A stretch of 64,000 nt of DNA from Psammoneis japonica (Eukaryota). The stretch lies in contig QPGO01000002.1 in NCBI GenBank assembly GCA_008632985.1, positions 806,001-870,000 on the forward strand, in the 5' to 3' direction. Below are positions 8,880 through 64,000 of the stretch, in pieces. Position numbers and translations under genes: made by a program. Within the stretch, counting starts at the first letter, position 1; every line of letters begins with the position of its first letter. The notes below the pieces were generated by a model that was not told where the DNA came from, ran no database searches, and saw only the letters and a list, made by a program, of their open reading frames with translations.

Positions 8880-10202
8880 CCTGACCTCATGCATGTGGGT
8901 TCCATCTTGGGTCAAACGAAAAACCGGCTCAACAAGACTGTTGTTTCATGGTGGCAGCCACCTCAAGCGGAAGAGTGCAAAAGGTGGCGACAGGCATCGC
9001 CATCAATGCTGGTCAGCTGAATCAGCCCAGTGCTGCAGGCAATGCTCAAGATGAGAATGAATCAATGCCAGCATGGTCAGAAACATGCAGCAAACACTGA
9101 TGCACCTCGCAAGAAGGAGCAACACTGCCGCACATTGAATGAGCTCTGGACCCAAGTGCAACCTGCACTCTGATTGTTCAATCAAAACACCACTTGCAAG
9201 CCTTCATTTGATCCTAGATTCCCTTCCTTGACTCTTGGACCCACTCTTGCACATTGAAGCTTGCCAAAAATTGCGTGCCAACTGCATCACACAGGGCTCC
9301 TTGATTAAAAAAAAAAAAACCGTGGTCAGCAAAGGGCGAGTCTTCAAACAGCTCGGCTTGCTCTTTTGCAGAACAAAGTCCAAAAGCAACAGTGAATGCA
9401 CATCAGTTGCAGGGTTCACCATCACTGTCTGCAAGAGATGCCATGTGTGTCTGCTCTGCTTGCTCTTGGACATTGTGCGCACCACCGGGTCGAGTTGCTG
9501 GGTCTTGCACTCGACGCTGTCTTTGGCTCTCCATGAATCAAAGACGCCAATCCAGAGGCAAGGATGGTGAGGGTGGCAAGAGCAATTGGAGTGACATGAG
9601 ACATGATTGCAATTTGGTGTGTGAGCATGGCGAGTGAGCAAAAAATGATGCAGTGCAAAAAGTGACAAGAGACAACTGCAAATTGTGAGCGTGCGCATGA
9701 CAAACCCCTCTGGCCAACCCTGGCTGGCTGCACCCCAGAAAGGCCAAACCAAGCCAACGCCCCCTCAGGTTACACTGGAAACCTCAACAAGTTGAAAGAT
9801 GGAGACCGCAGAGATGTCCTTGCTTGCAAATTGTGGGGCAAGGCAGCAGCCAGACAGACACAGAGAGCTCGTGGCAGTCCCTGACACTGACGTGCAAAGT
9901 CTTGCCAATCTAAGATGCTGGAACAATTTTTGGCAGATCATGAACAAGAGAAAAAGTGCAAGTGTCTCAAGCCTTGCCTTGAGCAGCATCGCCATTTCGC
10001 TCCATTCGTGATGTCATGCGATTGGCTGCTTTGCAAGAAAGCCGAAGCATTGCTCCATCTGACAGAGGCCGGCTCGACCAGCAGCCAAATGGCAGAAGAC
10101 ATGTTCAGAAGACAGCAGCTGCATCAATGCTGGAATGAGCAGAAGCAATGTGAGGGCAACCCACCGTTGCCTTCGAGGGTCTCGCGTTCCCTCATCCCAG
10201 AT
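8880..10202 (+). mobile_element. Degenerate 3' part of an RLE-type (CRE/R2-like) non-LTR retrotransposon
   Basis: Broken frames read SA-RDAMC, DTD..KS, HEQEKKCKCLKPCLEQHRHFAPFVMSCD..L.K.AE, KW and VRATHRCLRGSRVP. This matches the restriction-like endonuclease C-terminus (EKKRKY..CLEQRRHF.PFV.S.DG, VRATH.CLRGSR) with Tyr>Cys changes. The tract is strongly TpA-depleted. Confidence 0.75.
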
Positions 10203-10645
10203 CGTTTGTGCAATGTGCAGCTGCCAACAAGAGTTGGTGTGTCACGGCGACGTGTTACAGCCTTTAAATGTCACAAAGGGCGTGACAAAAACAACCTTTT
10301 GTCTGCATGCATGCTGCATTATCCTTGTGTCCAGCTTTGGCCAAAGTTGGCCACATATCCGGGTTTTCCTTGGTACATATTCAGCGTACATTCTACGCAG
10401 TTGGCCAACATCGACTCGAGCTCCGATGACTGGTTTCAGATTTTGCGGCCGGCTCGCGCGAATTTTTCGTTTTTCGACGTTTATTATGCAGCATTTCTGT
10501 TTGAAAATGTCCACAATTATGTTGTATTTTATTCATTATATATATGTTAGCACTCGCCACTACACGTTTGTACCAAAGCACACGTAGGGCAGATCGCTTC
10601 ACCGAGCTCGATTCGAACGAAATCCCGTTTAACTGGACTCAAGGN

Positions 10646-10850
10646 CTCCATTCATGATTTCATGCGAAGGGCTTGGCAAGGAGCTGATGCATTGCCCTGT
10701 CATCTTGCAGCGGCTGGCACGACGAACAACAGCCAAATGTCAGAAGCCATGCTTGGAAGTTAGCAGCTGCTTCAATGTTGGAATAAGCACAGCCACAGTG
10801 AGGGTGACCCACCGTTGCCTTCGAGGGTCTCGCATTCCCTCGATCCCAGA
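10646..10850 (+). mobile_element. Second, 5'-truncated copy of the same non-LTR element 3' end
   Basis: Diverged direct repeat of about 10000-10202. Both share acccaccgttgccttcgagggtctcgc.ttccctc..atcccagat, and this copy encodes VRVTHRCLRGSRIP. Confidence 0.7.
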
Positions 10851-11280
10851 TAAGCTCAAGTGCCCCATGTGTTTGATTTGCATTTGGTCAATCGGACACA
10901 CGTCCTTCCGTCGCGCGCAACCAGTCATCCATTGTCAGTCATCAGTCATTATCAATCATTGTAGAGACATTTGAAAGAATGTCATACGAGATCAACTTTT
11001 TTTTTCGAAAAAAGGAGCAAGGGTAAAAAACAACGAACAATCAAACACTGCAACAACGACGTAAGACAAGAAGCGACTGACTCGCCGCCTTTTCAGTGAA
11101 AGGAACTCGCTCATGAGTAACAATCTCGACGGTCGAGGCAGGTGACTTCCAATTTCAAACGCCCGAGATACCGCAACCGCAAGCTACGACATCGACGGGT
11201 CACTGAACTCAGCGAGAAAAAGTGAGAAAGAGTATTGACACGGGGTATTAGCAAACGCAAAGAGAGAAGAAGTGAGCACC

Positions 11281-15739: not shown

Positions 15740-16990
15740 AAAAATGATGCAGGTGCGGTGGCATCGCTTGGCACTGTCAATGCTGCATCAACAACAGCGG
15801 CAATGTGCACCTTGACCTTGATGTGTGTCTTTTGAATCATGCAGTGCTCCACAATTTTCCCGAGTTCTTCGCTCTTGTTGTTTTTGTGTCCGCAAAAATG
15901 TCTCTTGCTCGCCACTGTCATTTGAGTCGTCACATCAGCAAAACTCATCTGCTGGCATGTCATGCTGATGTAGAGCCATGATGAAGCACATTGCACCACA
16001 TGTTGATTGATTTCTTCTGGGTGCAACTGCTTTCTTTTTCAACTTGGAGAGAGAGACACGCGCCACTTTTGCTGCCTTGTGTTGGCTGTTTTTTGTGATG
16101 CCTTGGCAAAGTTCAAAAGCACTGAAAAAGTGACTTTCCCACTGCTTGTCATGGCACATGCTGACCATTCACCAAAAATGTGAACTTTCTCCACATTCCA
16201 ATGCCAACAGGCTTGCCTGATGCCTCGCAGCTGGGAGAGATCAAGAGGGGGGGGTGAGTTGGCCCCGGGGTGCCACAGTGTCACTGGACAGCTCCTCTGC
16301 CACCCCAAAATGCTGCTGTGGCTGCATCCCAAATGTGACAGTGTTGTCTAAAGACCCCAGTGACCCTTCTTCATCATTGGAAAGTGCAAAGAGGTGGCCC
16401 AGTTGTTGTGTGCCTCTTCTTGCTTTTGAGAGCACTCTTGCTCACCCCCCATTTTTGCCAAATCTCCCAAAAATGTGTGAGCTGTCTTGCACCATCAGAC
16501 CCCCAAAAGACCCTTGTTTTGCCATTGGAAAATTGGAAGTTGCCACAACATTGTGGCAGCCAACCACTGCTCTCTGACTGCACGGCTTCTTGCTCCCATG
16601 TGCACACCAGAGCCACACTCTTTCAACCTCCACAGAAAAAATCAGCCTTGGCTTTGCTCCACTTTTTACCCTGCATCCAAACAGCTGCCCAATGAGTTGT
16701 TCTGGGAAGTTGTCAACAGTTTTTCACATTCAAACCCAGAGTCTGATTGCATGTCCAGCCCCAATCATCTGAAAATCCCAACAGCCCTGGCCCTGGCTAC
16801 AAACCAGGAGAGACACCAAGGGTTCAATGGAGCATCTAAAGCTGTGCATTCTTGTCATTGAGTGCTTCCCCTTGGCCAATGAGAAAAGCCAGAAATGTTC
16901 TTTTGGGCTGGCAACCCAACTGGATCATCAATCCACACACTCCTGACTTTTCTGCTTTTGCTCATCCTTTTCCTGTCCATGGTCAACCTT
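15740..16990. pseudogene. TpA/CpG-depleted degenerate tract of unidentified origin
   Basis: Very few TA dinucleotides and excess TG/CA. Only overlapping Cys/His-rich spurious ORFs are present. Confidence 0.55.
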
Positions 16991-17337
16991 GATCGTAGAT
17001 GCAAGTCAATGCGCTTGTACGACTGGGTGTGATTTCTTGTGGGTTTAGTTGGATCGAGATGCTGTGGTGCGTTCATCGCAATGTCAAGCTCGAGCGAAGG
17101 ACAACGAACCCATCACAGGCCGACGCGACGCGGACGCGATACGATAGATGGCATGGCCACTGGCACGCCACGACTATCTGATGGCTAGGCTCACCATGCA
17201 GGTGTGTACCATCTGTTCATAACTGATAATTTGGAAGGTGCTACAAGGTTTCGTGGCCACTAATAGCTAGCTATTTTGTGTCTACACCGTCTCGGTGACC
17301 CACTTTTCGTCCATGCTGTGTCGTCCTCAACAATATG

Positions 17338-19611: not shown

Positions 19612-20559
19612 GGCATGGTGTGTGCCGAAGCGAGAAGATGGCAGGTGCTTGATTTGGATTTGCCAGATTGCCGCAAATCTTTTTTGTTTTTTGATTTTTT
19701 TTTTTATCGATCTCGCACGGTCCGTCCGTTTGTCAATGTTGGCGACAACCCGTGACGCGGAAGGCATGGCAGGCATGGCATCAGAGTGTACGGAAAGTAC
19801 AAACAGTTTCGTGCTTCTCTAGTAAAAGAAGGTCTAGGGCTATGGCCTAATGGAAACAATGACAACGGTGCTTCAAAACTTACACCGTTTCGAAATTTTG
19901 AATGCTGTCCGTTTCGAGTTTTCGCTCAATTCCCGGAAAACACAGTCCCCTCTGTTCTTCCGCTGCAACAGTCACTTCCGTGCCTCCTTCTGCTGTTCCT
20001 TTCCATTTTCAACAGGCTCTTTAACCCTGCACTTGGTTAATTGAGTGATTGTTGTGGTGTCATGCAGGTCCAGCACCATGACGTCCAGCAATGTGTGGCT
20101 CTCGATCAAAATCGTGTGACAGAACACAGAACAGGTCCAAGCACCATGACGTCGAACAACGGGCGCTCGATGTGCCAGGGATCTTTTCTCTGAAAACGTC
20201 ACAAGCAAAAGCGAGGTGGATGATCTTGTGACCGAGATTCAATGACTAAAAACTCCCAAGCAGTGTCGAGGCTGCTGGCCGACGTTGGGTCGCCGTCTTC
20301 GTCGCATCCCCAAAGAGGACATGACTCATGAGAGCATCTTGGACCAATTGACTGAGAGTGAGTCACACCGGCCTCAAACTTGATGGCCTATGTGGAGCTG
20401 CATGGGACACAAGATGTGTTGAAGAAACGCAACTTGGAGACAATGCGCGACGCCAACTGGATCGAGCAAACAGAGTTGCCCGAGCCCACCAATGACCAAC
20501 TCACATGTGTGGCACATTGCAAGCTTGCAGCAGCAAAGCCTTCAGCCTTCTGACCCCAT

Positions 20560-23500
20560 CAACATGCACAAAAAATGACAATGCATGTGACCACACAGCT
20601 CCAATCTGAAACAGGCGGCTGTTCCATGTTTTCTCAGCTGTCTTCATTCATTTCAATCATGTCATGGACTGTGTCATGTCAGTTTTTCAATTTAAATTTT
20701 GCTTCCACATGTCCAACTTTTTCAATGTGAATTGCTTCCCACACTGTGCTGCTCATGTTGAGCATGTTGCCACAGCAACAAGAGCACAAGGCAAAACAGT
20801 GTTCAAGATGAGCCGCTCCTCTCTGAGTCTTTTTGTGATGATGGTGAGACCACACACGGGCAGCTGCATCAGCATCATCCCCAGATTCTGCATGGCACAC
20901 ACACATGCACACAAAACAGCAGATGCAGGCACATCTAGATCAGCATGATCTGATCAAGTTTCTGCCAAGATCTGCTTGCCTTTTTGGGGCAACTGGTGTG
21001 TTGTCACACTGCAAGCAGTGCATTTTGGACTCTGCCAGGTTTGACTGTCATTCCTCTTGCACCCTGTCTCTCACAGTCTCTTCTCTCAAAGAGTGGTGGA
21101 AAATGCACATCATGCTGGTGGTTGTCACTGGAATGACCCCAGCTGCAAGCCATGATCACCTGGTGCACTGCTTGCATGATGCTGGAGTGCTGCAGCTTTT
21201 GATGACAGCACTCATCTTTTCAAAGCCCATCTGCTGACTTTGAGCCTTGTCCTCATCCAGCTGAATCTCACCAAATGTCACTCAAAGAAGTGTCTCTGCT
21301 GGGGAGAACATCAAGCTGGCTCTTGGAGCATCCCTGCACAGTGGGTTTTTCACTTGCTCCCTTCCTCAAAGGCAGCTCCACACAATGGAGCATGTGGTTG
21401 GTTGCGTGCCCCCCCCCCCCAAAGCTCAAGCAGTCCAAGAGATTTGGCTTTGCACCTGAAGATGTTGGTGCACCTGATGTGCCTGAAATCACAGCCAATC
21501 ATGTCAAAAGATCCTCTTTGTGTTGATGCTTCTGGAGGCTTGTCAGCTGAATGTGCACAAAATGACCTGGCCAACCAGTGCAAACACCCAAGATGAGCAT
21601 GGCCAGCTGCTGGCTGCCTCGTGCATGCTGTCAGGCAACAAAAAACAGCAGGTTGTCAAAAGTCACATTGGCACAGAAATTGAAAGGTCAGGGGAGTTGT
21701 GTGAGCAGGAGCTCATGTCAACTCCTCATTGGTTTGTGTTTTTGATTGCACGCAATTGATTGTGCACAAGTTTCTCCAATCCCATTTGCCTGCCTGTTGA
21801 ATGCATGGTGGTTGTTGTCACAGTGTTGACAGGAGCCTGTCAACATGCACAAAATGCAAGCATGGGTGCTTGACTTGTTTTTCAAATCCCCCAAGCAACT
21901 GTGCCGCTGAGTCTCCCTGTGCTTCCATGGTTTGTGCCACCACTGCTGTGGTGGGCACCTTGCCCCTGGGGTGCACATGGTCTTGCTGTGTTGCCATTCT
22001 TGCGGTGCATGCTGCTTGCTCCCAAATGACTCAGGACAACAGCACCCAACAAGCAGCAAGATTGCACATCTCTCAATGCACTGTCTTGTGCATGAAGAGT
22101 GCTGTCATCATTTGCGTGGACAATTCTGACCTGACCTTTGTGACAGTCAGCTCCACATTTTGTCTTGTGTTCTTTTTTGATGAGCACCAACTGCCCAATG
22201 ACACATTTGCACACTTTCCATTTTACACTTTCATGTTTGTTGTTCAAGCATGCTGGCTTTGCTTTCTGTCCTGGACACACTTCCTCCACTTTCCCCAAAG
22301 ATCAACTGTGCGGGACTCTCCCACACAGTTGTGTGCACCCCAGCTCTTGTGGCAGAGGCCACAGAGTCAACAGAGTGTCATTCCATGGGTCATCCTCATC
22401 CAACATGTCCTGTGCTGAAAATGAACACACCACACATTGAGAAGCATCTGGCACATGCACTCTACAGTGACAGCACCCGCCTGTGGATTTCTCTTGCTTG
22501 TGGATTCATGAGCAATGCCACAGCCATTCTTGATCATCTCTGGCTGAACTTGGCCACAAATTCAGTGCCATGGTCATGGACAACCTTGCTTGGCTGTGGG
22601 TGCCTGCATGGCCAGGTTTGTTCCATGATGTTTGCTGTGTGTTCCTTGATCTGGAGCCACCCTGTCAGCCACACTGGGTTGATCATGGTGACTGCTCACC
22701 CACAACTGCAAAACATCCTTTCCACATCACTCAACTTGGGGTGGGGGGCAATCATGTCTGTTGGACACAAGGTCTCTCATGGGGTCATCTCAGCCACCCC
22801 CATTTGGGCAGCTTTCCATGATGCTGCATCTGGCATTTTGTCTTCATGACATTGTTCACACTTGGCACATGCAGAGTGCACCACAGCCATCACACTGGGC
22901 TGGCAGAAGTGCTGGGGGCAATTGACATTTCTGTGCATCATGTTTTGCCAGGGTGGAGCAGCATGTGGCACCACTCAGTTGGAGGTTCTTGGTGCTTCTG
23001 GCACAACAATTTTGTCCTGACAGCACATCAGCTGTTTTGTGATGCATCTCTCCCATGAAGTGCATGTTGTGTTTTCTCAAAGGTTGCTGGTGGTGCTGAG
23101 GTGTCCAAAGCTGCCTGAAGCAAATGCTTTGTGCAAAGGATGCATGAATCATGCATGTCTTAGATGACAGGATTGCCCCAATGCACCAAGCTCAGCTCCA
23201 GTGCATGTGCACATGACACACATTTGAACAATGCATTCCAGCCACAGGAGGTGGGGCTGCGCATGTGATGCTGGGTCCACAGAATTCTGCATGGAAGCTC
23301 CACAGCAAAATTGTCAGGCAACAAATTCATGAATGATTGCCAACAGAACTGTGCATGATTGAAGCACACCATCTCCAGGTTGCCCAAGCACTTTCTTCAG
23401 ATGTGTCAAAGAAATCACCCAGCCCATTTTGATCTCATGAGTGGTTGAAATAAAAAGCCTTTGGCTTTGCAAAAGAGGGAGAGCTTGAAGCAATTTGCAG

Positions 23501-24720
23501 ATGACCACATGCAAAAACATGGCAGTCACCAAGGCATCACCTTCGGGCAAACAGCACACAAGCAAGAACTTTTCTGTGCCCACTGCTGCGGTGTGTTTTT
23601 GTCCTGCCACACCTTGCTCAGAGCTGCACTGGAGTGACAAGTGCTCTTCACATGCACCCATGGCAATGCATGGAACACTCAGTTTGCGTGTTGGGCTGTC
23701 AGCATCAGCTGGCAACTTCCTGAGTGCACAGAATGTCTGGTGCTCTCCTTTCAACAGTGCCTTCTTTTCCAGACATTTTGTGGCAATTCATGGGTGGTTT
23801 GATCATCATCATGACCACCGCGCACTTGTGGGTGCAACAATGTTGCTGCTGTGCCTCGTGCACTGTCAGGTGACAAAAAATGGCAGAGGTTTTCAAAAGT
23901 CATGTTGAGGAAAGAGTTCATGTGAACAGGGAGCAGCACAAATTCCCCATTGGCTTGCATGATCAGAGTCCCTTGTGTGCTTCCATGGCATGCACAACCA
24001 CTGCTGTGTGGTGTGTGTCTCACCCCGGGACATGCACAGCCTCACCATGTTGCCAACAGTGTGGTGCGTGCTGCACACAGTGCTTCAAAGCTGCAAGAAA
24101 GAAGGAGACAGTGACAGAAAAACAGCCCACACAACAGGGCTGGCCACCACACCACCCATGAAGATGAGTGCAGATGGGCCTTGGTGTCCAGGAAGAAAAG
24201 AGAGCCAGAAACCTTCAAAGAGACAAGAAGGCCGAACATGAGTGCAAGGCCACCCAGAGGAAGTGCAAGGGTGTCAGCCAGCACTTTGCAGAGCTTTGCC
24301 CCTGCCTTTGAGAAAGTTGCTGATTTGTCATGACCTTTGGCAGCCACACCCCAATCTGCTCCCAAAAGTGAAGTGGGCAGCAGGCCAAGAGTCAAGAGCT
24401 GGTTTCTTTTTTGCAGCATGAGCAAGAAGTCTCTCCCCCCAACCCCAGCAAAGGAAATGGGGTTTTGATCTGGCCCTGAAAAAGCTTGCTGGTGTCAGTG
24501 CATTTAATGAGAGCTGAGTTGGAGCATGCATGCCAACACATGAAAGTGTGCATGCCTGTGCGTGCATGCAAAACAACAGCTGCTTTTTGGGTGGTTCTCT
24601 GTCTGCGAGCACTCCTCCTCTGTGGCCAACAGCTGGGCAAACTAGAATGGCACACTCAAAATCATAGAAACTGTTGATTGTCAAGCTGTGATTATTCTCT
24701 TGTCCATTTCTTAGCAATCT
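20560..24720 (-). mobile_element. Heavily degenerate Ty3/Gypsy LTR retrotransposon relic (integrase about 21850-23100)
   Basis: Minus-strand fragments: CCQDKIVVP..EWCH..LHPG..QHF..CEQC (H2C2 zinc domain), HGKLP..AEMTP.ETLC, AVTMINP..TGW, EQTWPCRHP.P..VVHDHGTEF, RNPQA and DDPW..RAG.HTT..SPAQLIFG. These match Gypsy integrase with Y>H/C substitutions. Boundaries are approximate. Confidence 0.75.
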
Positions 24721-32550: not shown

Positions 32551-32567
32551 AGGGTGTGGTGGGTGGG

Positions 32568-38432: not shown

Positions 38433-38543
38433 GCAAGATCCTTGAAAACAGAAGGCCTTTCTGCCCCGTATGATGTGCCTTAGGTCATTCGGCCTATCGA
38501 ACGAGACCTGGCCCTCCCCCGTATCCTCCGTTCCCCATGAATT

Positions 38544-41008: not shown

Positions 41009-41020
41009 GATGAGGGAGAC

Positions 41021-41268
41021 TAAAAAGAAGAATGCTTTTCCAAGCTTGAGTGATCCAGTCACGATGATCAGGGTTCCTGTTCCAACAAAGCTGGAAAAGT
41101 GAGAGAAAAGAAAACCGAAGTTTGACCGGTCACAGTCAGAAGACTAGACCGAGTCATCTTGAGTCGGAAGTACCCTACTTCCGTCGCGGATCCAGCGAGA
41201 GGTCATAGTCATCGAGCGAGGTCGGTTTGAGTCAGTCCGTCTCCATCTAAACTTGGGTACGAGGAGGA
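41021..41268. repeat. Split direct repeat A1
   Basis: Aligns to 32568-32815. Confidence 0.95.
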
Positions 41269-52772: not shown

Positions 52773-55700
52773 TTATCCCTCTACCAGAAAGTCTTCCAGA
52801 TCAACATACGCATCATCACGGTCATTCCCCGCATCCTGCCCTGCCTCTCGATCACGCTGGAGCATTTGGTCTACCACAAAGTTTCTACTGCGGGGTACCC
52901 GCTTCCTCTTCTCATTTTGGATTTCTTTCTCGATCATTGCATTCTTTCGAGATCGTTTGCGCTTGGCCTGGTCCAAGCCATCATCGGAAGTGTCGTCGTC
53001 TAAAAGGGCTAGACCGAATCCGGAGGAATCGGATAGCGTTTTCAGTTTCATTGAAATCAGATCATGTAGTGTAGTCTCTTCCATATCCAGAACAGCTCCA
53101 TCGTCCGCCTTGAATATGAATTCTTCCACCTTCTGGAGCGCACTGCAAGTCGTCTTTTTGACTGTGGCGTTAAATTTCTGTAAGGCATTTTCAAGCTCCT
53201 GCATGTTCGAAACAACCTTTGGAAGTCGGGCAAGGACAGGTTCCTTTGGAGTATAGATACCTCTAGTGTATTTTGCTGATTCTTTGCTCTTTTCCTTTTC
53301 CGCTTGAAACCACCTTCTCGTTCCTCCAGTCAGGTCAAGACCCGGTACGTCCTGGAGGAGCCATGCCGCGAGACATGTCGTTGATTCCACAACGCCTAAA
53401 GCAGTGATTGCGTCGCACTGTTGATTTGTTCGGATGAAAGCGGAGAGGCGGCGGATTGAACGTTTCAATGCCAGTCCAATCTTGTCCAACAAGGAGCACA
53501 ATCGTAGCTTCCCCTCACTTGTCAGTCTTAAGGCCAAGAGAGCACCAATCGCTGGTTCCTTATTCGTATCAGAGGTGGATTTCTGCTCATCGAGAATTGC
53601 GTAGACGCAAGTGAAAACACCATACAACTCATCAAGTCTCTCGGATCCATAGAGGCTCAAGCAATAGCTTCTTTCCACGTCTTCATTAAACAATCCGGGT
53701 TGCGCGCAAGGAGTACCAACTTCCACACCGCCACTGATGCCGCTCGACTGCATAACTTCGAGAGATTCTGCCCATAGATTCTCCATCGTTTGCATTGAAC
53801 AGCAAAATGACCAGGAAAGAGTCTTCGCGGTGGGCATTCGTATACTCAATTCCTTTCTATCGGATGCGGAGCCGCAATTGCTGGCAGAAAGATCTTGGCA
53901 TCCAGTAGGAATCTCAATCACAGCGGGAATGCGATCTGGCGACCTCGTGCCATCTCCTTGAGGTCGTACATCTTCTCCGTCAGTGTCCAACACGCTACCA
54001 TCCCTTTCCTCATTATCCATCGTACCGGTGACTTCCACGCCAGCGATCTCGCTCCACACTGCTTTGGGGTCCAATTCGTCCCAGACTTTGAGAAGGCTGA
54101 GACACTGTTCAAATACCATTGAGTAAAAGCATTCCAATTCTTCGAAATCCTGTCCACTCTGGCATGTCCATTGCGCTATGTTTGTTCTTGTTAAGCAGCG
54201 GGGTATAGAAGGAATCAAATCCATAAGAAGCATCAGTACTTTCCTAAAAATCCGAGAAAGCGGCAGCGATACAGTGCAAATGATTTTCCACATGCGCAAT
54301 GCCACCGTTCGACAAGCTTCCCAAATTTCAACGGCGCCTCTGTGGTCAACATTCTTGTCTGATTCGCGAAAAATGTTGATAGCTACTTCCAATAGGTCTA
54401 GGTACGTTGACAACATGTTGGTGTCCATACCTCCACTCTCACCTTCCAAGCCTGACAACACGTCGGAAGAGAGAGTGTCGAGACAACTTGTCCAGAACGC
54501 GAGTGGCAACAGCGAACCCACGGAGGAGTCAACAGTACCACCAACTGGTGTAATGAAATTGTCCGAGGCACCACTGAGCAAGCTCAGCAATGTGGAAAGG
54601 AGATTTAGCCTGACTTGCCTAACTGCCCCATCGACTTCTTCACTTGATTTAAGTCCCATAAGTGAGAAACTCTTGTCCTTGTCTCTGTCAACCACAAGTG
54701 CGGGATTTTGATGATGAAAGTTTTTCTCTTCCAGAAATAGAATAAACCGTTTAGACGCGTCCTCGTTTCCGATAGCCTCGTACAACCGCCAAAGACTCTT
54801 CACGGAAAGTGTGCATTCCTCGCAGTGGATATTATTGTCGGCCCCCTTCAACTCGTGTCGCTGGATTAAGTCTTGAATGTCGTCGCCGTAAATCAATAGT
54901 GACTTGTATAGATCGTTAACGTCCTCAATTTTCGATTCTCTGAAGTCTTTCAAGACCTTGGAAGCAACGCCGAAGAAGACTCCTCCTGTCTTGATGAGCG
55001 ACCCAGCATTATACTCGATTGTCTCTTCGGAACCAAAACTGCATCTTAGCAAAATTAGAGTGCTTACGCATTTGAATAGGCACTTTGAATAGTCTTCAGA
55101 AAAACTTTCAGCTTCGTAAGAGGACAAATTTTGATCCAAAAGGGATTCGATCAGGACACTACAAAAAGACGCCAACATGCTCTTCGAGATTAAACAGTCG
55201 TCTTGTATCGACGAGGGGGTGGATGATAAATTGTCACTTGATGGAGCAGAAAGAGTCGCCCATCTGTGTTGATTTCGTTGGTTGATACTTTGATCTTGTC
55301 TTGGAGTTCTAGCGACCGATGCACAAAGATCGCTTTCTTCCCCTACGAGGGACGCGCGAAGGAGTTGGCATGTATCTAAATGTGACAACTTTTGAACCAC
55401 AAGAAGATAATTAGTCTTCACTTCAATCGTAGAACATCCCACAATGCATAGTAGTACAGCGCAAAGGCATGAAACTGTTGCTTTCTCAGAAAGCGCAATA
55501 GTTTGCTCCAGGTTCTGAAAGGAGTTGGAAGGGTGTGATGCTTCGCTCGAAACTCCGCATAGTCCGGTGATGAGATGCTTGTGTCCCTCGAGTAAGACTT
55601 CTTTTCGGGTTTCGTCTCGACGTGATGCCGCAACCTCAAGGGCTATTATCAACCGAAGCAAGGATACCGTATCGTCTCTCAGCGAAGAGCACTTCTTTCG

Positions 55701-58166
55701 CGAGCCCTGTCCTTTCGCATCGCTGTGCCAATAGCTAGCAATTGCCAGCTGAGGAGAGAAACAAAAGCCACCTCTGGCGTCAGCACAAAAGTTCGAGAAT
55801 CTCATTAAACATGATCTCAAGATGATATCGACCGTCTCCGACGATATCGCTTCGTTCTGGGCTAAGAAAATGAGGCGTTGATACAGCCATGCCCTCGCTG
55901 ATACTGTCAGGACCGGATTTTGGTTCAAAACGATCATATCCGACAGCATCATTCGTGCTTCTACCCCGCACTCATCGATTAAAGAGTCTTCGCTGTCTGG
56001 CAAAAGCGCACACAAGCCGTGAAGCGCTTTCACAACGCGGTCTTGGCCGGCTCTGCAACGTTCACCGGTTGTCCTCCCTCTACATTCCCACGACACGCCA
56101 AAAAAGGGAGTCTGGAGCATCTTTCGGCAAGAGGAAAGTATCGCAGTCCGCGCAGAGTGCACAGGTGACAGCGCTGTTGCTAGATGACAAAATGCATCTT
56201 TCGACAAGGGTCCAGAGAATATATTTTTCAAAATCGGGCGCAACGGTTCCATCAGGTCCTCGCTGCGAAACGACGTCTCCTCGAGATGGCGAATGGTCTT
56301 GACCAATACCTCCAGGGTGATGCAAAACAAGAAAGAGCGACTCTCGACGGCGTAAAAGCCAGTATCTTCCAGAGGAGCATGAGTGGGGTTTGAACCATTT
56401 TTCCCCACGAAAGACTGCATCAACATACAAACTGTGCTCGCTCTCGATGATGGGATGTCAACGTAAGTGATAACCACGGCCCAGACAGCCAACACAATGT
56501 CCTCAAGTGTCAGTTGGTAGGATTTGTCTGAGTGTTTAAAAACGATGGATTGAGCGGCATGCACCCAAAGCTGCGCCCTTTCCGAGTAGGCAAGCAAAGC
56601 GGCAGAAGATAGGTTTGTGATACTGTCGCGGGCTTGCCGTTGACCAAGAAAGATGCAGTCATGAACTAGTTTCGTACAACGCCTTGACAGTAGCACCGCT
56701 GTTGCATTGTTTTCTCCTGTAGAACCCACAGTCCCATGACCTTGGTAGCACGTAGTCTGCAAAAAATCGCGCGCCTCATTCAAAGTGACTTCATTTTGGA
56801 CTCTTGGGTTCTTGTGCTTGCTTTTACGTCCTCGTTTTGACAACACTTTCCTACCTTCGTCTGGAAATGCAATTCGAACCAACACACTCCAGCTCTTGTG
56901 CACTAAATCTATTCCGTCGTTCTCGTTTGAAGCGTATCCAAATGCACGAGACAACAAGTGCGATACAAGCTGGGATCCCGATTGCTGAATAGCTTCAAGT
57001 AGCACCAGCTGCAGATTTGCCCGAACCCAGGTTGGGACCTTGTCGACACTCGTTGTATCTGATGTGATCGTTAATGCATGATTCACCCACGAATGTAGCG
57101 TTGGGGTGGAGAGCATGGATACACTCGATTTCAGCACCGTCTCAACTGTAGAAAAATTTTGCCTGTCGTCACATGCAGTCTTCATGAAAAGGTACAATAC
57201 AAGATCATGCCATGAGGGCCCCTCCACATCAACATCACGTTCTGTCGAGAAGAACGTTGTGACAATGACCTGAATCAAACCGGGGTAGTCTTGTCTGTCG
57301 ATCCCCCCTTCTTCTTGAAACAGCTTTTTGTGCAGAACTCTTTTCAAAACCACAAGTTGCGTTGGTTGCAAGTGCGATTTGTTCTGTGATGCAATGGTGA
57401 GCCAAGATAACAATCGATTGGAAGCAATACTGCTACGAAAAATCAGGGCGAGGATTTCCTCCTTAATGGATTCGTGGCCATGTTGCAACTCGGCTCGCTT
57501 GTCTACTGCATCGCAGAGAGACAAGAGGCTGGGAAGCACTTGTTCGAGTGGTAGCATCCAATCATTTTGCTTTGCTGAAATGTCGTCTTCCTGAACACCT
57601 ACCAGTGGTTCAAGCATGATTCGTGCAAGTTCTGTCAGTGCCATTCTTGGTGTACACTTATTTGATACGGCGTTCGGGTTGTTTCGCCCGCGTTTCGTCG
57701 TTGAAGTTGTAGCGATGTGACTTGGAGTGAGCCAGTTCGAGACAGATTCTTGTAGAAACGTCTGAAGATCTGCAAGGGCTGACCACTTGGAATGTTTGGT
57801 GTGTAATATGCAAGCTTCCAGCAATGATTGATCTGTAGTTCTACTGTGCTGAAACGCCATAAGAACGTTTGATGCAACTTTCCAGACAGTGTCATACCAA
57901 GGCGGGGTCCAGAGGAGGCCTCTTATCATAAAGTAGCAATCCGATTCCACCATTTCCTGCCTGCACAGCTTATCATAGACGGATCGTGCTGGTATCGAAG
58001 GACAAGAAAACAGAGGTATATCGACAGCGTTACTGTCGTGTTGTAGAGGAGGAAGTTGCGAAAGACCGAAACACTGACAAACACGACGCTGATTTCGTTC
58101 ATCTACCGCACGTTTCAGATCAAGCCCCACTGCGGTAGCAGTTTCTTTTCCAGTTATCTTAGACAT
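52773..58166 (-). CDS. Large hypothetical alpha-helical protein, 1797 aa (weak FANCI-like C-terminal resemblance)
   Basis: Single uninterrupted ORF, Leu-rich. The C-terminus has LARLPKVVSNMQELE, a basic NLS-like stretch and RSRN..D..L...DLEDFLV. Confidence 0.8.
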   Translation of the reverse strand: MSKITGKETATAVGLDLKRAVDERNQRRVCQCFGLSQLPPLQHDSNAVDIPLFSCPSIPARSVYDKLCRQEMVESDCYFMIRGLLWTPPWYDTVWKVASNVLMAFQHSRTTDQSLLEACILHTKHSKWSALADLQTFLQESVSNWLTPSHIATTSTTKRGRNNPNAVSNKCTPRMALTELARIMLEPLVGVQEDDISAKQNDWMLPLEQVLPSLLSLCDAVDKRAELQHGHESIKEEILALIFRSSIASNRLLSWLTIASQNKSHLQPTQLVVLKRVLHKKLFQEEGGIDRQDYPGLIQVIVTTFFSTERDVDVEGPSWHDLVLYLFMKTACDDRQNFSTVETVLKSSVSMLSTPTLHSWVNHALTITSDTTSVDKVPTWVRANLQLVLLEAIQQSGSQLVSHLLSRAFGYASNENDGIDLVHKSWSVLVRIAFPDEGRKVLSKRGRKSKHKNPRVQNEVTLNEARDFLQTTCYQGHGTVGSTGENNATAVLLSRRCTKLVHDCIFLGQRQARDSITNLSSAALLAYSERAQLWVHAAQSIVFKHSDKSYQLTLEDIVLAVWAVVITYVDIPSSRASTVCMLMQSFVGKNGSNPTHAPLEDTGFYAVESRSFLFCITLEVLVKTIRHLEETSFRSEDLMEPLRPILKNIFSGPLSKDAFCHLATALSPVHSARTAILSSCRKMLQTPFFGVSWECRGRTTGERCRAGQDRVVKALHGLCALLPDSEDSLIDECGVEARMMLSDMIVLNQNPVLTVSARAWLYQRLIFLAQNEAISSETVDIILRSCLMRFSNFCADARGGFCFSPQLAIASYWHSDAKGQGSRKKCSSLRDDTVSLLRLIIALEVAASRRDETRKEVLLEGHKHLITGLCGVSSEASHPSNSFQNLEQTIALSEKATVSCLCAVLLCIVGCSTIEVKTNYLLVVQKLSHLDTCQLLRASLVGEESDLCASVARTPRQDQSINQRNQHRWATLSAPSSDNLSSTPSSIQDDCLISKSMLASFCSVLIESLLDQNLSSYEAESFSEDYSKCLFKCVSTLILLRCSFGSEETIEYNAGSLIKTGGVFFGVASKVLKDFRESKIEDVNDLYKSLLIYGDDIQDLIQRHELKGADNNIHCEECTLSVKSLWRLYEAIGNEDASKRFILFLEEKNFHHQNPALVVDRDKDKSFSLMGLKSSEEVDGAVRQVRLNLLSTLLSLLSGASDNFITPVGGTVDSSVGSLLPLAFWTSCLDTLSSDVLSGLEGESGGMDTNMLSTYLDLLEVAINIFRESDKNVDHRGAVEIWEACRTVALRMWKIICTVSLPLSRIFRKVLMLLMDLIPSIPRCLTRTNIAQWTCQSGQDFEELECFYSMVFEQCLSLLKVWDELDPKAVWSEIAGVEVTGTMDNEERDGSVLDTDGEDVRPQGDGTRSPDRIPAVIEIPTGCQDLSASNCGSASDRKELSIRMPTAKTLSWSFCCSMQTMENLWAESLEVMQSSGISGGVEVGTPCAQPGLFNEDVERSYCLSLYGSERLDELYGVFTCVYAILDEQKSTSDTNKEPAIGALLALRLTSEGKLRLCSLLDKIGLALKRSIRRLSAFIRTNQQCDAITALGVVESTTCLAAWLLQDVPGLDLTGGTRRWFQAEKEKSKESAKYTRGIYTPKEPVLARLPKVVSNMQELENALQKFNATVKKTTCSALQKVEEFIFKADDGAVLDMEETTLHDLISMKLKTLSDSSGFGLALLDDDTSDDGLDQAKRKRSRKNAMIEKEIQNEKRKRVPRSRNFVVDQMLQRDREAGQDAGNDRDDAYVDLEDFLVEG

Positions 58167-59430
58167 GGTTCAGTCAAAGGGTGATGTGACACCTTTTCCC
58201 AGCTCCCAGCACCCAATCCGATTTTGCAATGGGTTTGCGATATTGGCATCAAAATAATGAGCCTCTTGGAATCATCTGTCGCGCATCGCGCAAAGCAACA
58301 GGCGAGTGTGGCGCTGCGCCGTCGTCACCGGCACGTCCATCACATCTTGCACTGCAGGGCCTGCGCCTAAGGCAGGGCCCTCCACTCTCTCTAGCCAGAG
58401 CAGTGCTCCTGGCTCTAGCTAGAGAGGGCCTAAATTACAGTGGGCCCCAGAGAGAGGACAATTCAGTGCAGAGAGTGGATTGTGTTGCAGCACAAGTGCA
58501 GGCTGTGCAGGCCCTGGCTGCAGCGCAGCTCTGCAATGGGAAATGTGAGACAGCTGGACTTTCTCAAGAACGCTGCAGTGGGGCTTGCTCCAAGCAAGTT
58601 GGCCGGCCCTCTGCAGCAGCTGTGGGGCTACAAACACAATTCCATTGGCACCTGTGGATCCAGCTGCAGCCCTGGATCATAAAGCAGCAACCCGATTCCA
58701 CCATTTCCTGCCTGTGCACAGCTTGTCACAGACGGATCGTGCTGGCATCGAAGGACAAGAAAACAGAGGTGTGTCAACAGCGTCACTGTCGTGTTGCAGA
58801 GGAGGAAGTTGCAAAAGACCAAAACACTGACAAACATGATGCTGATGTTGTTCATCTGCCGCACGCTTCAGATCAAGTCCCACTGCGGCAGCAGTTTCTT
58901 TTCCAGTTGTCTCAGACATGGTTCAGTCAAAGGGTGATGTGACACCTTTTCCCAGCTCCCAGCACCCATTCTGTTTTTGAAATGGGTTTGTGCTGTCCTG
59001 GCATCAAAATCATCCTCTTGGAGTCATCTGTCACGCGTCGTGCCAAGCAACAGGCGAGTGAGAGTGCACGCTGCACCGTCGTCACCGGCACGTCCATCAC
59101 ATCTTGTGCTGGAGGGCCTGAGGCAGGGCCCACTGCTCTCTCTAGCTAGAGCAGTGCTCCCAGCTCTAGCCAGAGAGGGCCCAAATTACAGCAGGCCCTG
59201 GAGAGAGGACAATTCAGTGGAGAGAGTGGGCTGCATTGCAGTGCGAGTGTGGGCCATGTGGGCCCTGCAGTGCAGTTCTGAAATGGGAAACATGAGATGG
59301 CTAGACTTTCTCAAGAACGCTACAGTGGGGCTTGCTCTAAGTAAGTCGGCCGGCCCTCTGCGGCAGCCATGGGGTGACAAACATAATTCTACCGGCAGGG
59401 CCCCACCTGTGGATCCAGCTGTAGCCCTGG
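57925..59430. repeat. Tandem duplication of about 750 bp (57925-58675 / 58676-59430) covering the 5' end and upstream region of the 1797-aa gene
   Basis: Both units start atcataaag(t/c)agcaa and end cagctg(c/t)agccctgg. Confidence 0.92.
58677..58919 (-). pseudogene. Hypermutated truncated copy of the first about 80 codons of the 1797-aa gene
   Basis: MSETTGKETAAAVGLDLKRAADEQHQHHVCQCF versus MSKITGKETATAVGLDLKRAVDERNQRRVCQCF. Confidence 0.9.
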
Positions 59431-59486
59431 CATGACACAGCAGTGCCTCTAGAGGGCTCACCGAGGCGCATCAACAGGAAGCTTTT

Positions 59487-59958
59487 TTTCAACGCTATTT
59501 GAGCAGGATGGAATCACAAACGAGCAGCAAAACCATGGAACGAACAGACTTGTACTATTCATGTTACTAACTAGATAGCAGAAGAATGCTCGTCGGAAAC
59601 AACAGGAATCCTTTTCAATCGTTGTCCATCTGAACTAATCTAAATTCTGAAACATTATGGCAAGAGGGGGTATGTTATGGGAGGGGAGATTATCCCTTCC
59701 ATCGCGGCACGGCCCTTTCTTTTCAACGCTATTTGAGCAGGATGGAATCACAAACGAGCAGCAAAATCATGGAACGAACAGACTTGTACTATTCATGTTA
59801 CTAACTAGATAGCAGAAGAATGCTCGTCGGAATCAACAGGAATCCTTTTCAATCGTTGTCCATCTGAACTAATCTAAATTCTGAAACATATAATGGCAAG
59901 AGGGGGTATATGTTATGGGAGGGGAGATTATCCCTTCCATCGCGGCACGGCCCTTTCT
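59487..59958. repeat. Near-identical tandem duplication of about 235 bp (59487-59720 / 59721-59958) downstream of repeat protein B
   Basis: tttcaacgctatttgagcagg...ggccctttct occurs twice with about 4 differences. Confidence 0.92.
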
Positions 59959-62860
59959 TTATCCTGCCGCCTCGATACAGAAGTCAAGCTCTCCAACAGC
60001 CTCGCAGTCGCCAATAGCTGCTACCACTGGTGAACCCTTGACATCAGTTCGCTTGCTGTAGCAGTCAGGGACGCACGCATCAAGAGTTGCAGGCTCCGTA
60101 ACCGTAAGCTGTCTACCGCCTTCAAGTACAAGCTGCGAGGGATTAACACCTTCAATAAGGTCCTTGACATCTCCGTCACAATCACGCTCCCACTCTGTGA
60201 TTTGGAGCGCATCAGCACCCCTGTTGAAAGCTGTGTAGTTGTAATCAACATCAAACAAACATTGGTTGTCAGTGCCATCTAAGCTTCTGCATCGTTCAAT
60301 CTGCAAGGCACCAAACTGATCCTTGAGATTAAGGGGTTGGTCTTCTCCAGATGAATCAAAAAAGATGTTCTGGACAACAGCATCGATTCCTTCTTCGACG
60401 TTAATGATGTCGCAATTAAGATCTGGCGGTAAGCACGTTGCGTTGGCGCCAATTGTGATGGTTTGATTCTCGGTGACGGTGCAGTTGCAGTACACTCTCA
60501 CTGTATCTCTGCAAAAGATCAAAGCGTCTCCACCCTGAGGGATGGTATTCTCGGGGAAGTCAGTACAGTTATAGGGAGGAGAAGTTTGATCGTTCATGGC
60601 TTCATCACAGAGAATAGCACGCCACGAAAAGGTCAACCTGTCAATGCATTCTCCTCCGCCGCACGTTTCATCGGGAGGTACAAGCTCGTCACAATTGTCC
60701 TCGGAGCCACGAACAATACATTGAACACTAGCCTGTTGATGTGTTTAATTAAAAGGAAAGAAAAAGAAAGTGAGAACGATGCCACACGGGTGGAGGGAAT
60801 GTGATATGAAAAAAAAAACTTACATCGAGTTCGCACGTGGGCTCCGCGGGCTCCGGGATGCAAAGGTCGTATCCATCTTCATCTTCGCAGATGCTTCCAT
60901 CTTCACCTTCTCCCACAACATTTACGGTACAATTGATACACCCGGGAGTACAGCTGTCGATTGTGGCGGGTTCTGTGATGCCGAGTGACTGCATCGCTGG
61001 AATAGGGATGCCGCCAGGAGGCAGAAGATCCTTCTCTTCTCCGTTGCTGCAGGTACGTTCAAATTCAGTGATAGTCAAGTCAACATTACCTGGGTTTTCT
61101 ATGACATAAGTGTAATTTACGTCAAAAATACACTGGGAGTCGATTTCACCATCCTGGGTTTTGCAAGCTTTAATCTGCAATGCACCAAATGTGTCATCAA
61201 GATTAAGCGTCGAGCTACCGGATGCATCAAAGATGTTTTCTTGATTGACGGCATTAAGACCCGACTCGACATCAATGATGGTGCAGTTGAGTTCCGTTGG
61301 GAGACAAGTACCGTTGGCGGCACCAATTGTGATTGTTTGGTTGATTTTGACGGTGCAGTTGCAGTACACCCTTTCAGTATCTACGCATACGATCAATGCA
61401 TCACCACCTTGAGGAATGGTGTTCTCTTCGAAATCTGTACATAAAGCGTTTTCTTGATCATTGTCATCCTCTGAACAAAGAATATCAATCCAGGCAATGG
61501 TCAAACGGTCGATACATTCGCCACCGTTACAGGTTTCGGGGGGAGGCTCGATGACATCGCATGGTTCACCAGTGTCTGCGAGGATACAGTCCATCGTAAC
61601 CTGAAAAAAAAATATGTGTGGAAGATATCATTGAGAATCGTTAGGTAAGAGAGAAATCGACAGAAGAGAAAGATCATCAGTTAAAAGAAGATTGAGAGAT
61701 TCAACTTACGTCCACTTCACAAGGCAACTCAATGCAGAATTCGTCAGATTCACTGTCTTCACAAATAACCCCCTCTTCATCCTCAGCTCTGACAATAATC
61801 TCGGTCGTGTAGCAGTCCTCGACGCATCGGTCCAGCACTTGAGTTTCCATGGGATCTACGCTATCTCCCGGCGCCAGTGTTGTAGGATCGACAAGGTCAA
61901 TCAAGTCATCGGTTTCACCGTTGCGAGTGCGCAAAAGCTCAGTAACTGTAAAAGTAGTGGAGCCCGTATTGTCAATCGGGTAGGTGTACTTTAGATCCAA
62001 GAAGCAATCTTCCACGTTTCCGTCATCATCCTCACAACTCTTTAGCGTCATGCTTCCAAACTTGTCTTGGAGTTGCAAATCCACCGTTCCTGATGTATCG
62101 AAAGTAAGCGTTTGACAGAGCCTATTTCCGTTGGGGCTAGAGATAGTACATGTCATAGTGTCTGGAAGAGTAGAGCCCTCGTTAGCCTCGAGAGTAAAGA
62201 AGGGGTTGGGGTTAGGGTTGGTCTCTGGACGGATGGTGTTGTCTTCGAAGGTGAAACCATCTCCCTCACAGAAGATTCTCACGCGAGGATAACCGCTGCA
62301 TTCTTCTTGAAATTCAGGATTATCTTCGCATTCGAATGCACCATCGTCGCCTTGCTGACTGTTGCTACTCGCGTCGCAGTCACAGTACTCGTACTCGAAC
62401 GTGAGCTTCGTGAGCGGGTCGCTGCCTTCAGCACAGTTGCCATCAATCGGTGGGATTTCGTCACAGGGGGTACCAGCTGGTACATCGTCGGCTCCATCTT
62501 GAACTTCGCACACAAGGCCCACCTGATTATTGTTCATGACAAGAAGAAGACGATGTGTGTTAGCACGGAGAGTATTCTAGAAAATGTTGTGAGACAGTAT
62601 TTTCTTACTTCAACGTCGCACACTCCAGTAGGAGGTGGAGTAGGAGGAGGCGTAGGAGTGATAGGTGGTGGCGTTGGCACCACACTCATGGTGTCCTGAA
62701 GAAGCCGGGACCAGTACTGCTCATCGTCAGCTCCAAGGTCACGCACGGCATCCTTGACTTTGGAAATCACAGATCTCCTCGTTCCTGCGGCGGTGACGCC
62801 GTCGGCCCATGAGAGGGCAATGCTGGTAACTGCGAACAAGGCAGACCCAAGAAATCTCAT
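59959..62860 (-). CDS. Secreted Cys/Asp-rich repeat protein B (3 repeats), paralogue of protein A
   Basis: Signal peptide, YWSRLLQ, PTPPP linker and repeats with LQLQDKFGS / LNLDDTFGALQ / LNLKDQFGALQ. Exons at about 62860-62607, 62523-61710, 61601-60824 and 60731-59959. Confidence 0.82.
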
Positions 62861-63399
62861 CGTTGTTCTGTCTCTTCAGGCGATCGTCAATTGTACCGGT
62901 ACCTTCCGCTTGTTTTGTGTCGAACACAGAACCGGAAAAAGTGAGCGAAGGTATGTTGGCGTCGGAGGGAATCGCAGTAGAATGTGTACCGGAGGCTACG
63001 CATTGGCGATTATTCAGCGTATCTTGACACATAACGGCTAGAAATAGCACGTTATCAACGTATACGAATTTATATTGTCATTTTATGTGTGCAATATGTA
63101 GATACTCCTAAATAAATTTATTTAGTTTTGTATACTATTAAGTCGCCATAAAATATGTAAACCGATCACTATGGAAAAATTGAAGAAAGTTCTCCGTTGC
63201 TATTGAATAACGGCATTAATTACTGAATATATGAATTTGTGCCACGAACATCGCCTAAATTGGGGCGCGCGAAAATAATGGCGATAAGCGCGGAGATGTG
63301 GAGTTGCCACACTTGCCAGCCCTGGCCAGCCACGTCTCTCTACTGGTGGCTAGCAGTAGAGAGTGGCAGCCAACTCTCTAGCAGCCAGCTACCAGTTCG

Positions 63400-64000
63400 C
63401 ACCAACCCTAAAATGAATGTTGCGTTTGTTGTCATAAAAGATGAGCGCGGCGCTCACAGCTCCAGCAAGATCCCCTCCCTGCCTGTGAGATCTCACTGAT
63501 TGTCAGCCACCACATCCTCGAGTGAAGCAGGCGCCCCTGCAGCATGCTGGGTTTTGAGCTGGCACAGATGTTTTGTCATTCCTGGCCTCTTTTAGATTGT
63601 GACAGACCCAACACACATGCTGTGTGCCACCATGTCCAGCGCATTTTGGGCTGAGCGAGTTTTGCACAACGGCGAAAGGGCAAGAAGTGCTCCTCGGCCG
63701 GAGCGACTCTCAGACATCACAGAGGCCAAGTGCAAAGGTGCTTCACTGCATGTTGCAACTCACCACAATGCAGCATGCACTTTGTGCCAATGTTCTGCAT
63801 TTTGCCCACTCACCACGCCACACCAGATCGTCTGTCATTTTCCGCCAACAGCAGCAGCGACGAGTTGGGGCTTCGTCGCTTCCTCATCACATCGCATCTT
63901 CCCACCTGTCCTCACACTTGCCGGCACCTGCAGACCTCCCAAGCCGGAAGTGATCCTCGCTCCCAAGCGGGAGTGATCATCGCACCTTCGTGCTCGCGGT
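63400..64000. pseudogene. TpA-depleted degenerate tract continuing off the window
   Basis: Almost no TA in about 600 bp, with TG/CA excess. Confidence 0.5.

Follow-up and report, generated by a model that had tools for sequence, protein, structure and literature searches.

A mirror image of repeat-induced point mutation: TpA loss from mobile and redundant DNA in the diatom Psammoneis japonica

Repeat-induced point mutation (RIP), known from Neurospora and other ascomycetes and dependent on the methyltransferase RID (DNMT4) during the sexual cycle, changes C:G to T:A, mostly CpA to TpA, which raises TpA and A+T, and it spares rDNA. APOBEC3 and ADAR enzymes introduce context-specific transitions into retroelements and viruses, in strand-coordinated bursts on cDNA or RNA. 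Here we describe a stretch of 64,000 nucleotides from the diatom Psammoneis japonica (contig QPGO01000002.1, positions 806,001 to 870,000 of the forward strand; assembly of 91.4 Mb in 597 contigs), referred to as the window, in which tracts of mobile and redundant DNA lying between ordinary genes have lost the dinucleotide TpA. The core point, absent from an earlier sequence-only reading of the window, is the direction and chemistry of this loss, TpA to TpG or CpA, which is the mirror image of RIP. With RIP it shares irreversible dinucleotide-specific transitions that destroy repeats, a two-state genome and spared rDNA, but TpA is here depleted in favour of CpA and TpG with G+C unchanged, so that the defining spectrum of RIP is not the one found.

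The closest described system is that of the rhizarian alga Bigelowiella natans. The accessible part of the preprint (Mettrop et al., bioRxiv 10.64898/2026.01.13.699255) reports that TpA in two viral insertions changes to TpG/CpA about 1,000 times faster per generation than background, with activity in some lines only, a TpA rho of 0.45 with 124 small clusters genome-wide, and TpA-poor coding sequences enriched for reverse transcriptase (RT) and DDE domains; ADAT2 is proposed, not shown, as the enzyme, and the main text, as far as it is accessible, mentions no diatom, CpG, long terminal repeat (LTR) or flanking-base context. The two systems share a change of TpA to TpG/CpA on both strands of nuclear DNA, in foreign or silent regions and far above background. 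They differ in that the depletion reported in the rhizarian is mild, whereas in the diatom it nears saturation over about 60% of sampled windows, reaches a host duplicate as well as transposons of three kinds, favours TAY (Y, pyrimidine), is paired with CpG decay and leaves sub-regions spared; a per-generation rate was measured in B. natans, whereas here only a relative figure of about 240-fold is available from repeat pairs. Such a process has so far been reported only in this one unrelated alga, and the diatom case exceeds it in scale, targets and lineage. We found no literature report of TpA loss in diatom repeats, a weak negative given thin coverage of subscription papers and a search that also mostly missed the Bigelowiella preprint.

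We conclude that a host process very probably mutates A:T to G:C at TpA in the chromosomal DNA of inserted mobile and redundant sequence, a confidence that applies to the process and not to the enzyme. The changes run in one direction, fall on both strands as solitary hits, prefer TAY, and are found in LTR elements, a tyrosine-recombinase (YR) retrotransposon, DNA-transposon-like elements and a host-gene duplicate, with rDNA, live histone genes and sub-regions of young elements spared.

TpA-depleted tracts of the window

The observed/expected ratio of TpA was 0.05 at 8880-10200, 0.24 at 10640-10980, 0.06 at 15740-16990, 0.05 at 20030-24720, 0.08 at 30580-32090, 0.26 at 32090-41270 (the YR element), 0.14 at 43950-44800, 0.36 at 58300-59460 and 0.10 at 63400-64000, against 0.46-0.68 in the seven intervening stretches. 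CpG ranged from 0.17 to 0.80 in the tracts (0.93-1.06 between them) and TG+CA from 1.58 to 1.93, with 1.17 in the YR element (1.11-1.22 between tracts), whereas G+C was about 50% throughout. Host genes with introns in the window, such as cytochrome c1 and OSCA-type channels, have ordinary composition. A three-state hidden Markov model (HMM), trained on other contigs, assigned 15,777 of the 64,000 bases to the mutated state and recovered eight of the nine pieces, as segments 8793-10355, 15746-16991, 19894-24642, 30593-32082, 34564-37938, 39487-40802, 44182-44797, 58438-59301 and 63443-64000 with TpA of 0.03-0.17, against 0.47-0.68 in genes; the piece at 10640-10980 was not called and the YR element was called in part only. 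Five of five simulations gave no mutated-state bases, and the longest TA-free run, 1,288 bases, compares with at most 396 across 100 simulated windows.

The consequences for coding capacity are plain. Six-frame translation of the tracts contains 0.09% Tyr, 6.5% Cys and 5.4% His, compared with 2.3%, 3.7% and 3.4% outside, and TAA and TAG together make up 0.28% of triplets against 1.82% outside (TGA, 2.35% against 1.85%). The sequence-only reading had described TA-poor, TG/CA-rich islands beside genes of ordinary composition, filled with overlapping Tyr-poor, Cys/His-rich frames, and these are real on dinucleotide ratios, HMM, simulations and residue counts alike. Its warning of inflated gene predictions also holds, with TAA and TAG erased and full-length Tyr-free pol frames in existence, and the depletion is clearly stronger in the tracts than in genes and linked to repeats, the reverse of what that reading had named as its refutation. 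Its sharp bounds stand where the composition switches inside about 100-200 bases, which is every edge save the one common to the YR element; and its joint depletion of TpA and CpG stands for TpA, low in all pieces, but needs correcting for CpG, which differs from piece to piece and is still at 0.80 in the YR element.

It is hardly credible that the tracts are an error of sequencing or assembly, or that elements were selected to avoid TpA. Contigs of run X1 agree letter for letter at 58320-58943 and 59077-59515 and show one listed difference in the 44-kb tract, although X1 and X2 may both derive from the sample that was assembled. Each copy of a repeat carries its own fixed choice of TG or CA, unrelated metagenome assemblies carry the same pattern, and the Tyr of a catalytic motif is lost, which selection would not favour.

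Direction, spectrum and tempo of TpA loss

The direction, TpA to TpG or CpA, is given by three independent references that agree: a host gene, foreign homologues and a spared stretch. The host gene is intact (52773..58169, minus strand, a 1,798-aa frame of ordinary composition covered by X1 and X2 contigs) and its 5' end is the reference for a dead copy in tandem (58676..59443, plus strand), in the coding part of which 12 of 13 TA are changed (7 to CA, 5 to TG), together with 6 of 15 CG and 4 other substitutions over 242 bases; the host-gene duplicate that the sequence-only reading had counted among the affected tracts is thus one of them. Among the foreign homologues (the first 60 of 120), 18 columns hold Tyr in 90% or more of the sequences, and these columns were read in 30 loci of 48 Gypsy matches. 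Only 27 of 411 conserved Tyr were kept, with 210 replaced by Cys (TGY), 158 by His (CAY) and 4 by Arg, whereas residues whose codons lack TA (A, C, D, F, G, H, P, Q and W) were retained at 94-98%. In the mutated copies the YLDD motif of RT has become HLDD or CLDD. Tyr is at an ordinary level (2.9-4.8%) in every one of the top 120 homologues, out of 2,062, of a mutated Gypsy pol, so that the signature is not general among the relatives of this family.

Comparison of the spared stretch with 21 copies places the change at TA itself: A to G occurred at 246 of 459 TA sites, compared with 22 of 1,044 AA, 12 of 888 GA and 5 of 879 CA, and G to A at 73 of 497 CG sites compared with 5-8 of 586-908 in other contexts. 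Reverse changes are rare (TG to TA, 2/442; CA to TA, 3/529; comparison with copy L009). The base 3' of TA affects the fitted rate (T 3.3, C 2.6, G 1.4, A 1.1), and the TA that survive in the tracts of the window are mostly CTAG, TTAA and CTAA/TTAG, with none of 236 ATAT. Among the Gypsy copies L002-L028, off-target A to G changes were seen at AAT (20/334), GAA (17/335) and AAG (17/391), with CA contexts at 0-1.6%; the sites are few and shared ancestry may explain them. GC-biased gene conversion was considered and ruled out, being not TpA-specific, and CpG moves the opposite way.

The two strands are hit alike (240 TG, 267 CA and 78 TA kept at 83 sites in 19 copies), and neighbouring hits lie on the same strand in 167 of 313 cases where 160 are expected (P 0.21), so that strand coordination is absent. 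Together with the two LTRs of one insertion that differ from each other and with hits in DNA transposons, this indicates a process that acts on chromosomal DNA after insertion, one site at a time and with no RNA stage. APOBEC3 and ADAR likewise direct context-specific transitions against mobile sequence; here, in contrast, the hits are solitary, on both strands and in chromosomal DNA that includes non-retro sequence. ADAR-like editing of element transcripts that are then reverse-transcribed into DNA would fit the two ADAT1/ADAR-fold genes of the genome and the preference of ADARs for a 5' U, as given in the accessible part of the preprint (bioRxiv 10.64898/2026.01.13.699255). It is nevertheless highly improbable and largely refuted by the non-retro targets, namely the host tandem duplicate and the DNA-transposon-like copies, in addition to the differing LTRs, the equal strands free of strand runs and an AA context hit about 25 times less than TA. 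The earlier statement that the process is not an element-specific RT error is likewise borne out by the duplicate and the DNA transposon.

Terminal repeats are expected to be identical at the time of insertion, and eight pairs from five insertions (2,865 columns; the pairs are heterogeneous and the rates rough) were used to estimate tempo. The differences were 45 TA singles, 32 TG/CA doublets, 30 CG singles (30 of 185 CG sites), 5 other transitions and 4 transversions, with 14 TA and 155 CG retained in both members. Per-copy loss amounts to 0.62 for TA, 0.088 for CG and 0.002 per base for other changes, that is, hazards of roughly 240 times background for TA and 24 times for CG. CpG decay is a separate process, roughly tenfold slower than TpA loss. 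Decay of methylated CpG would account for the change of CG to TG/CA at about 24 times background in young repeats, but cannot remove TpA, the loss of which is some ten times faster and comes first: in a genome sample of 17 pieces, each about 10 kb long and placed at arbitrary coordinates (one borders the window, and small contigs are over-represented), CpG fell below 0.5 in 70% of TpA-depleted windows and in 1 of 113 TA-normal windows. The suggestion that saturation levels could act as a clock is tenable for the youngest insertions only, since TpA is saturated at about 0.2% other differences per copy and its loss depends on position within one element; CpG decay is the slower hand of that clock.

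Targets, distribution and candidate chemistry

The genome sample is bimodal, with TpA below 0.2 in 211 of 338 windows. Mobile and foreign DNA is hit and host genes are spared, the exceptions being the dead host duplicate and histone pseudogenes inside repeats. All eight 18S rDNA copies are spared (TA 0.86-0.87, at least 99.67% alike), as are 17 of 22 histone-fold loci, the spared genes being up to 97% alike; the five mutated ones sit in depleted DNA, and the three of these that were read show Tyr replaced by Cys or His. Histone H3-like copies lie within depleted repeats at five loci (L122-L126); a stretch of 3.3 kb is common to two of them (L123 and L124, 97%), which hints that a mobile element captured it.

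Sparing also occurs within elements. Three young Gypsy copies with saturated LTRs have normal TpA at the start of pol (L090 4000-5750, L091 3750-5500, L266 5750-7750); in L090 this sparing fades gradually on its 3' side. Chimaeras of old and young copies as the source of such spared centres were ruled out by equal divergence, as other differences between L090 and L091 are 1.1-1.5% in spared and mutated parts alike. A young DNA-transposon-like element of 4.5 kb with inverted ends of about 24 bp and two open reading frames (ORFs), present in four copies (L256-L259; L258 2726-7242), has a heavily TpA-mutated transposase-like ORF and a nearly intact second ORF. Of the 92 TA in a 2.1-kb part with 99% identity only 2-5 are gone, as against up to 33 of 54 in the part next to it.

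In the window, the tandem duplication comprises a first unit (57925..58687, plus strand), in which the gene start and about 180 bases upstream are intact and the distal 340 bases or so are mutated, and the dead second unit, to which it is 84% identical. Next to it lies a control, a tandem duplicate of 240 bp at 59483..59960 (plus strand) that is 97% identical and unmutated, with 13 and 15 TA. Unlike in RIP, duplication does not therefore appear to be a sufficient trigger, to judge by the spared 18S and histone genes, the 240-bp duplicate and the spared parts of young elements, although both tandem units are mutated beyond 58350. Silencing is the likelier trigger, and we consider it probable that a silent-chromatin or small-RNA mark starts at element ends and spreads.

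A true RIP logic, in which pairing of duplicates triggers mutation of both copies, possibly via a diatom DNMT4 related to RID, would account for the mutated distal parts of both tandem units, for saturated LTR pairs around spared element centres, and for the sparing of the 240-bp duplicate and of paralogues at 66-67%, which matches the thresholds of RIP. By reading, the genome encodes three intact DNMT4-like genes (L067, L068 and L074, the last with a chromodomain). The accessible part of one article describes DNMT5a-dependent transposon methylation in diatoms and a diatom DNMT4 that groups with RID and is of unknown function (PMC9998398). We regard such a logic as improbable, given that 18S copies escape, as do histone genes that are as much as 97% alike, that the 99%-identical part of the four-copy element is nearly untouched beside its mutated neighbour, that the live coding part of the duplicated gene is untouched, that the Bigelowiella target is single-copy according to the accessible part of the preprint (bioRxiv 10.64898/2026.01.13.699255), and that no route is known by which a C5-methyltransferase would change A:T to G:C.

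To follow the signature beyond P. japonica, a profile of seven mutated Gypsy readings was turned into a motif requiring the mutated state and run against metagenomes, a choice that shows presence and not prevalence. It matched 140 stretches, of which 71 were confirmed (51 clusters at 97%), all from one assembly series with some members labelled microbial mat. TpA was below 0.25 in 44 of the 71, conserved Tyr columns (850 codons) read 374 TGY, 337 CAY and 63 TAY, and residual TA was again highest in CTAG (0.17) and CTAA/TTAG (0.12) and nearly nil in ATAC, GTAC and ATAT (0.001-0.004). At one such place (L157/L158) the neighbouring gene is a normal NOP58, which has 65% identity to that of P. japonica and 80% to that of Seminavis robusta, with which it forms a 100/100 clade that excludes P. 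japonica; the P. japonica protein is itself 73-79% identical to diatom proteins, with its placement within diatoms not resolved in the tree. Signature and context therefore recur in microbial-mat contigs of a Seminavis-like diatom, and the other loci may represent more than one organism. Among 149 representative pol proteins, Tyr is below 0.5% in six, and the two tested match P. japonica at best at 55% and 38% among the candidates scored.

As for the enzyme, the genome holds TadA-like, ADAT2-like, dCMP and RibD deaminase genes, two guanine-deaminase-like genes and the two ADAT1/ADAR-fold genes. The ADAT2-like gene has HAE, PCxxC and the Asn of a GCxN motif; this Asn is usual in eukaryotic ADAT2 and is not diagnostic. 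ADAT3 is not among nine PF00383 matches, no separate search for it having been made, and a Bd3614-like search of the genome returned the TadA gene only. Two further observations concern this set: at L064 (contig C79) a guanine-deaminase-like domain lies in frame with sequence that by reading looks like a 2-oxoglutarate/Fe(II) oxygenase, and the dCMP-deaminase loci L062 and L063 are identical on contigs C41 and C317 and are probably uncollapsed haplotypes. We propose tentatively, with not quite even confidence, that the chemistry is adenine deamination in DNA by a TadA/ADAT-type or ADAT1/ADAR-fold enzyme, favoured as the simplest chemistry and for its fit to the 5' T.

The same mutation could have another source, such as an oxidised or alkylated T pairing with G, a methylated A or error-prone repair in methylated chromatin, with no adenine deaminase involved. 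Under such chemistry TA to CA and TA to TG would be one event on opposite strands, the hits are solitary and show no strand clustering, and TpA loss accompanies CpG loss in a genome with 27 C5-methyltransferase matches. TpA loss, however, precedes CpG loss and occurs where CpG is kept, and the genome gave no match to TET/JBP, MT-A70 or N6/N4-methylases, a weak point since controls for the first two were silent and those searches are uninformative. The 5' T preference fits TadA, ADAT and ADAR enzymes, a point also discussed in the preprint (bioRxiv 10.64898/2026.01.13.699255). On balance we find the alternative chemistry unlikely, though it is the foremost of the competing explanations. DNMT5 was not found among the loci read, L273 looks DNMT3-like, and five C5-methyltransferase copies (L071-L073, L077 and L080) lie in TpA-erased DNA, an expanded family with mutated copies.

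Each TA is lost as a target once hit, so that tracts saturate at TG/CA. Tyr, including that of the RT motif YxDD, becomes Cys or His and TAA and TAG disappear, leaving elements to die by missense with their frames open, and a slower second process, presumably deamination of methylated CpG, turns CpG into TpG/CpA in the same DNA. With adenine deamination as the chemistry, the silencing mark would guide the mutator, and adenine in DNA would be deaminated to hypoxanthine and fixed as G at replication. Several points weigh against this account. The tract at 15746-16991 has no detected second copy; 13 TG/CA doublets past 58350 mark both tandem units as mutated distally, as a pairing trigger would do; strand runs, as a processive single-strand deaminase would leave them, are lacking; and TpA is palindromic, which makes an attacked A indistinguishable from an attacked T. 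The deaminase families searched give only housekeeping-looking genes, with no chromatin domain seen on any. Endonuclease V, which is able to cut at deoxyinosine, is present. In favour of the account, an MPG/AAG-type hypoxanthine glycosylase was not found in the genome in a search whose control was positive in 4 of 14.

A bolder and somewhat less secure proposal is that an adenine base editor may occur naturally in diatoms of at least two lineages, where silent chromatin or small RNA would direct it to transposons and dead duplicates and it would rewrite TpA in chromosomal DNA to saturation, as a defence on the scale of RIP. The defence would be shared with Rhizaria and possibly old in the stramenopile-alveolate-rhizarian (SAR) group, and its enzyme would need no engineering to act on genomic DNA. 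If true, this would be a second mutational defence of that scale in eukaryotes, reversed in chemistry and shaping more than half of a diatom genome. What has been seen in the viral insertions of a single species would become a general process directed at transposons in another major lineage, and base editing would have reason to take an interest in a DNA adenine deaminase that occurs in nature. The preference for TAY over TAR (R, purine), the solitary hits, the spared sub-regions and the comparison of carrier with non-carrier diatoms offer handles on the enzyme. In practice, the erasure of TAA, TAG and Tyr means that dead elements keep long frames and evade searches by Pfam or homology, and that gene counts are inflated and LTR dating is distorted.

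Individual tracts and neighbouring genes

Six of the nine pieces (8880, 10640, 20030, 30580, the YR element and 43950) match dispersed repeats and one is the local duplication. The YR element, a young one, occupies 32100..41268 (minus strand) and was identified by its repeat layout, with 39 matches, the nearest at 96-97%. Ngaro/PAT-like YR retrotransposons have split direct repeats in the order A1-ORFs-B1-A2-B2, and the same order is found here: A1 at 41021-41268, followed by the ORFs, B1 at 32813-33263, A2 at 32568-32815 and B2 at 32100-32550. Elements of that type also carry ORFs for RT-RNase H and a tyrosine recombinase. Here Pfam gave no match on the ORFs, and the labels RT-like (34674-38543) and integrase-like (33377-34534) come solely from look-alikes picked by a language model, whose clusters carry RVT_1 at 0.95 and, from rank 12, phage integrase at 0.97. 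Most TpA of the element is gone and most CpG is retained; in polarised triplets of its copies 28 of 165 TA and 126 of 1,675 CG had changed, against about 1% elsewhere. Of the three unrelated retroelement classes originally listed for the tracts, Gypsy and YR are confirmed in the window and a third could not be.

The first tract (8793..10355, HMM) has 8 TA in 1,563 bases and consists of pieces of dispersed repeats with 77 own-genome matches (40 of 382 candidates scored); it includes a family at 9798-10203 with copies of 71-79% elsewhere in the genome and a high-copy repeat of about 110 bp at 10208-10322, which occurs in dozens of places, mostly paired some 340 bp apart and nearly always in depleted DNA. 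A short 79% copy of 10000-10202 lies at 10646..10851 (plus strand), weakly depleted and uncalled by the HMM. The tract at 15746..16991, erased of TpA and CpG (5 TA, 13 CG), gave only a self-match in a DNA search of the genome and with one reading frame, and Pfam was blank. The saturated tract at 19894..24642 (minus strand; 11 TA in 4,749 bases) begins with a repeat end at about 19945-20040 (27 matches) and contains a decayed Gypsy integrase region at about 22100-23135 (minus strand), with 48 matches to Gypsy copies at 65-73% whose homologues carry RT, RNase H and integrase domains. Adjoining the YR element, 30593..32082 is a TpA- and CpG-erased tract of dispersed-repeat pieces (8 TA, 17 CG; 24 matches). 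The tract at 44182..44797, also erased of both, has 2 TA in 616 bases, and its depletion begins near 43950; the sequence at 44093-44215 is similar to the end of a family of young DNA-transposon-like elements whose inverted ends are short (5 matches at 72-82%). The last tract, 63443..64000, has 1 TA in 558 bases with CpG partly kept and runs about 1 kb past the window, where TpA is 0.19 and 0.09. A Pfam scan of 44 six-frame readings, covering six tracts and 1.5 kb past the window, gave nothing meaningful.

Several neighbouring sequences are unmutated. The OSCA-type channel genes at 3140-5735 and 11596-13822 are paralogues, as are those of Cys/Asp-rich repeat proteins at 50073-51668 and 59959-62576, with 66-68% DNA identity. 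A GLUG-motif protein (PF07581) at 41702-43826, also unmutated, has AT-richer codons and a bacterial look, and may be a gene transfer. Run X2 is given as probable DNA in its listing, yet it lacks a GT..AG intron of 80 bases at 45740-45821 and may be an RNA run; X2 does not extend over the tracts, and the skipped intron is not taken here as a sign of expression. Intergenic runs at 840-940, 2580-2960, 52300-52500, 58380-58430 and 63330-63390 are rich in CTAG, CTAC and AGAG motifs; CTAG, common in these runs, is likewise one of the TA contexts that the mutator changes least.

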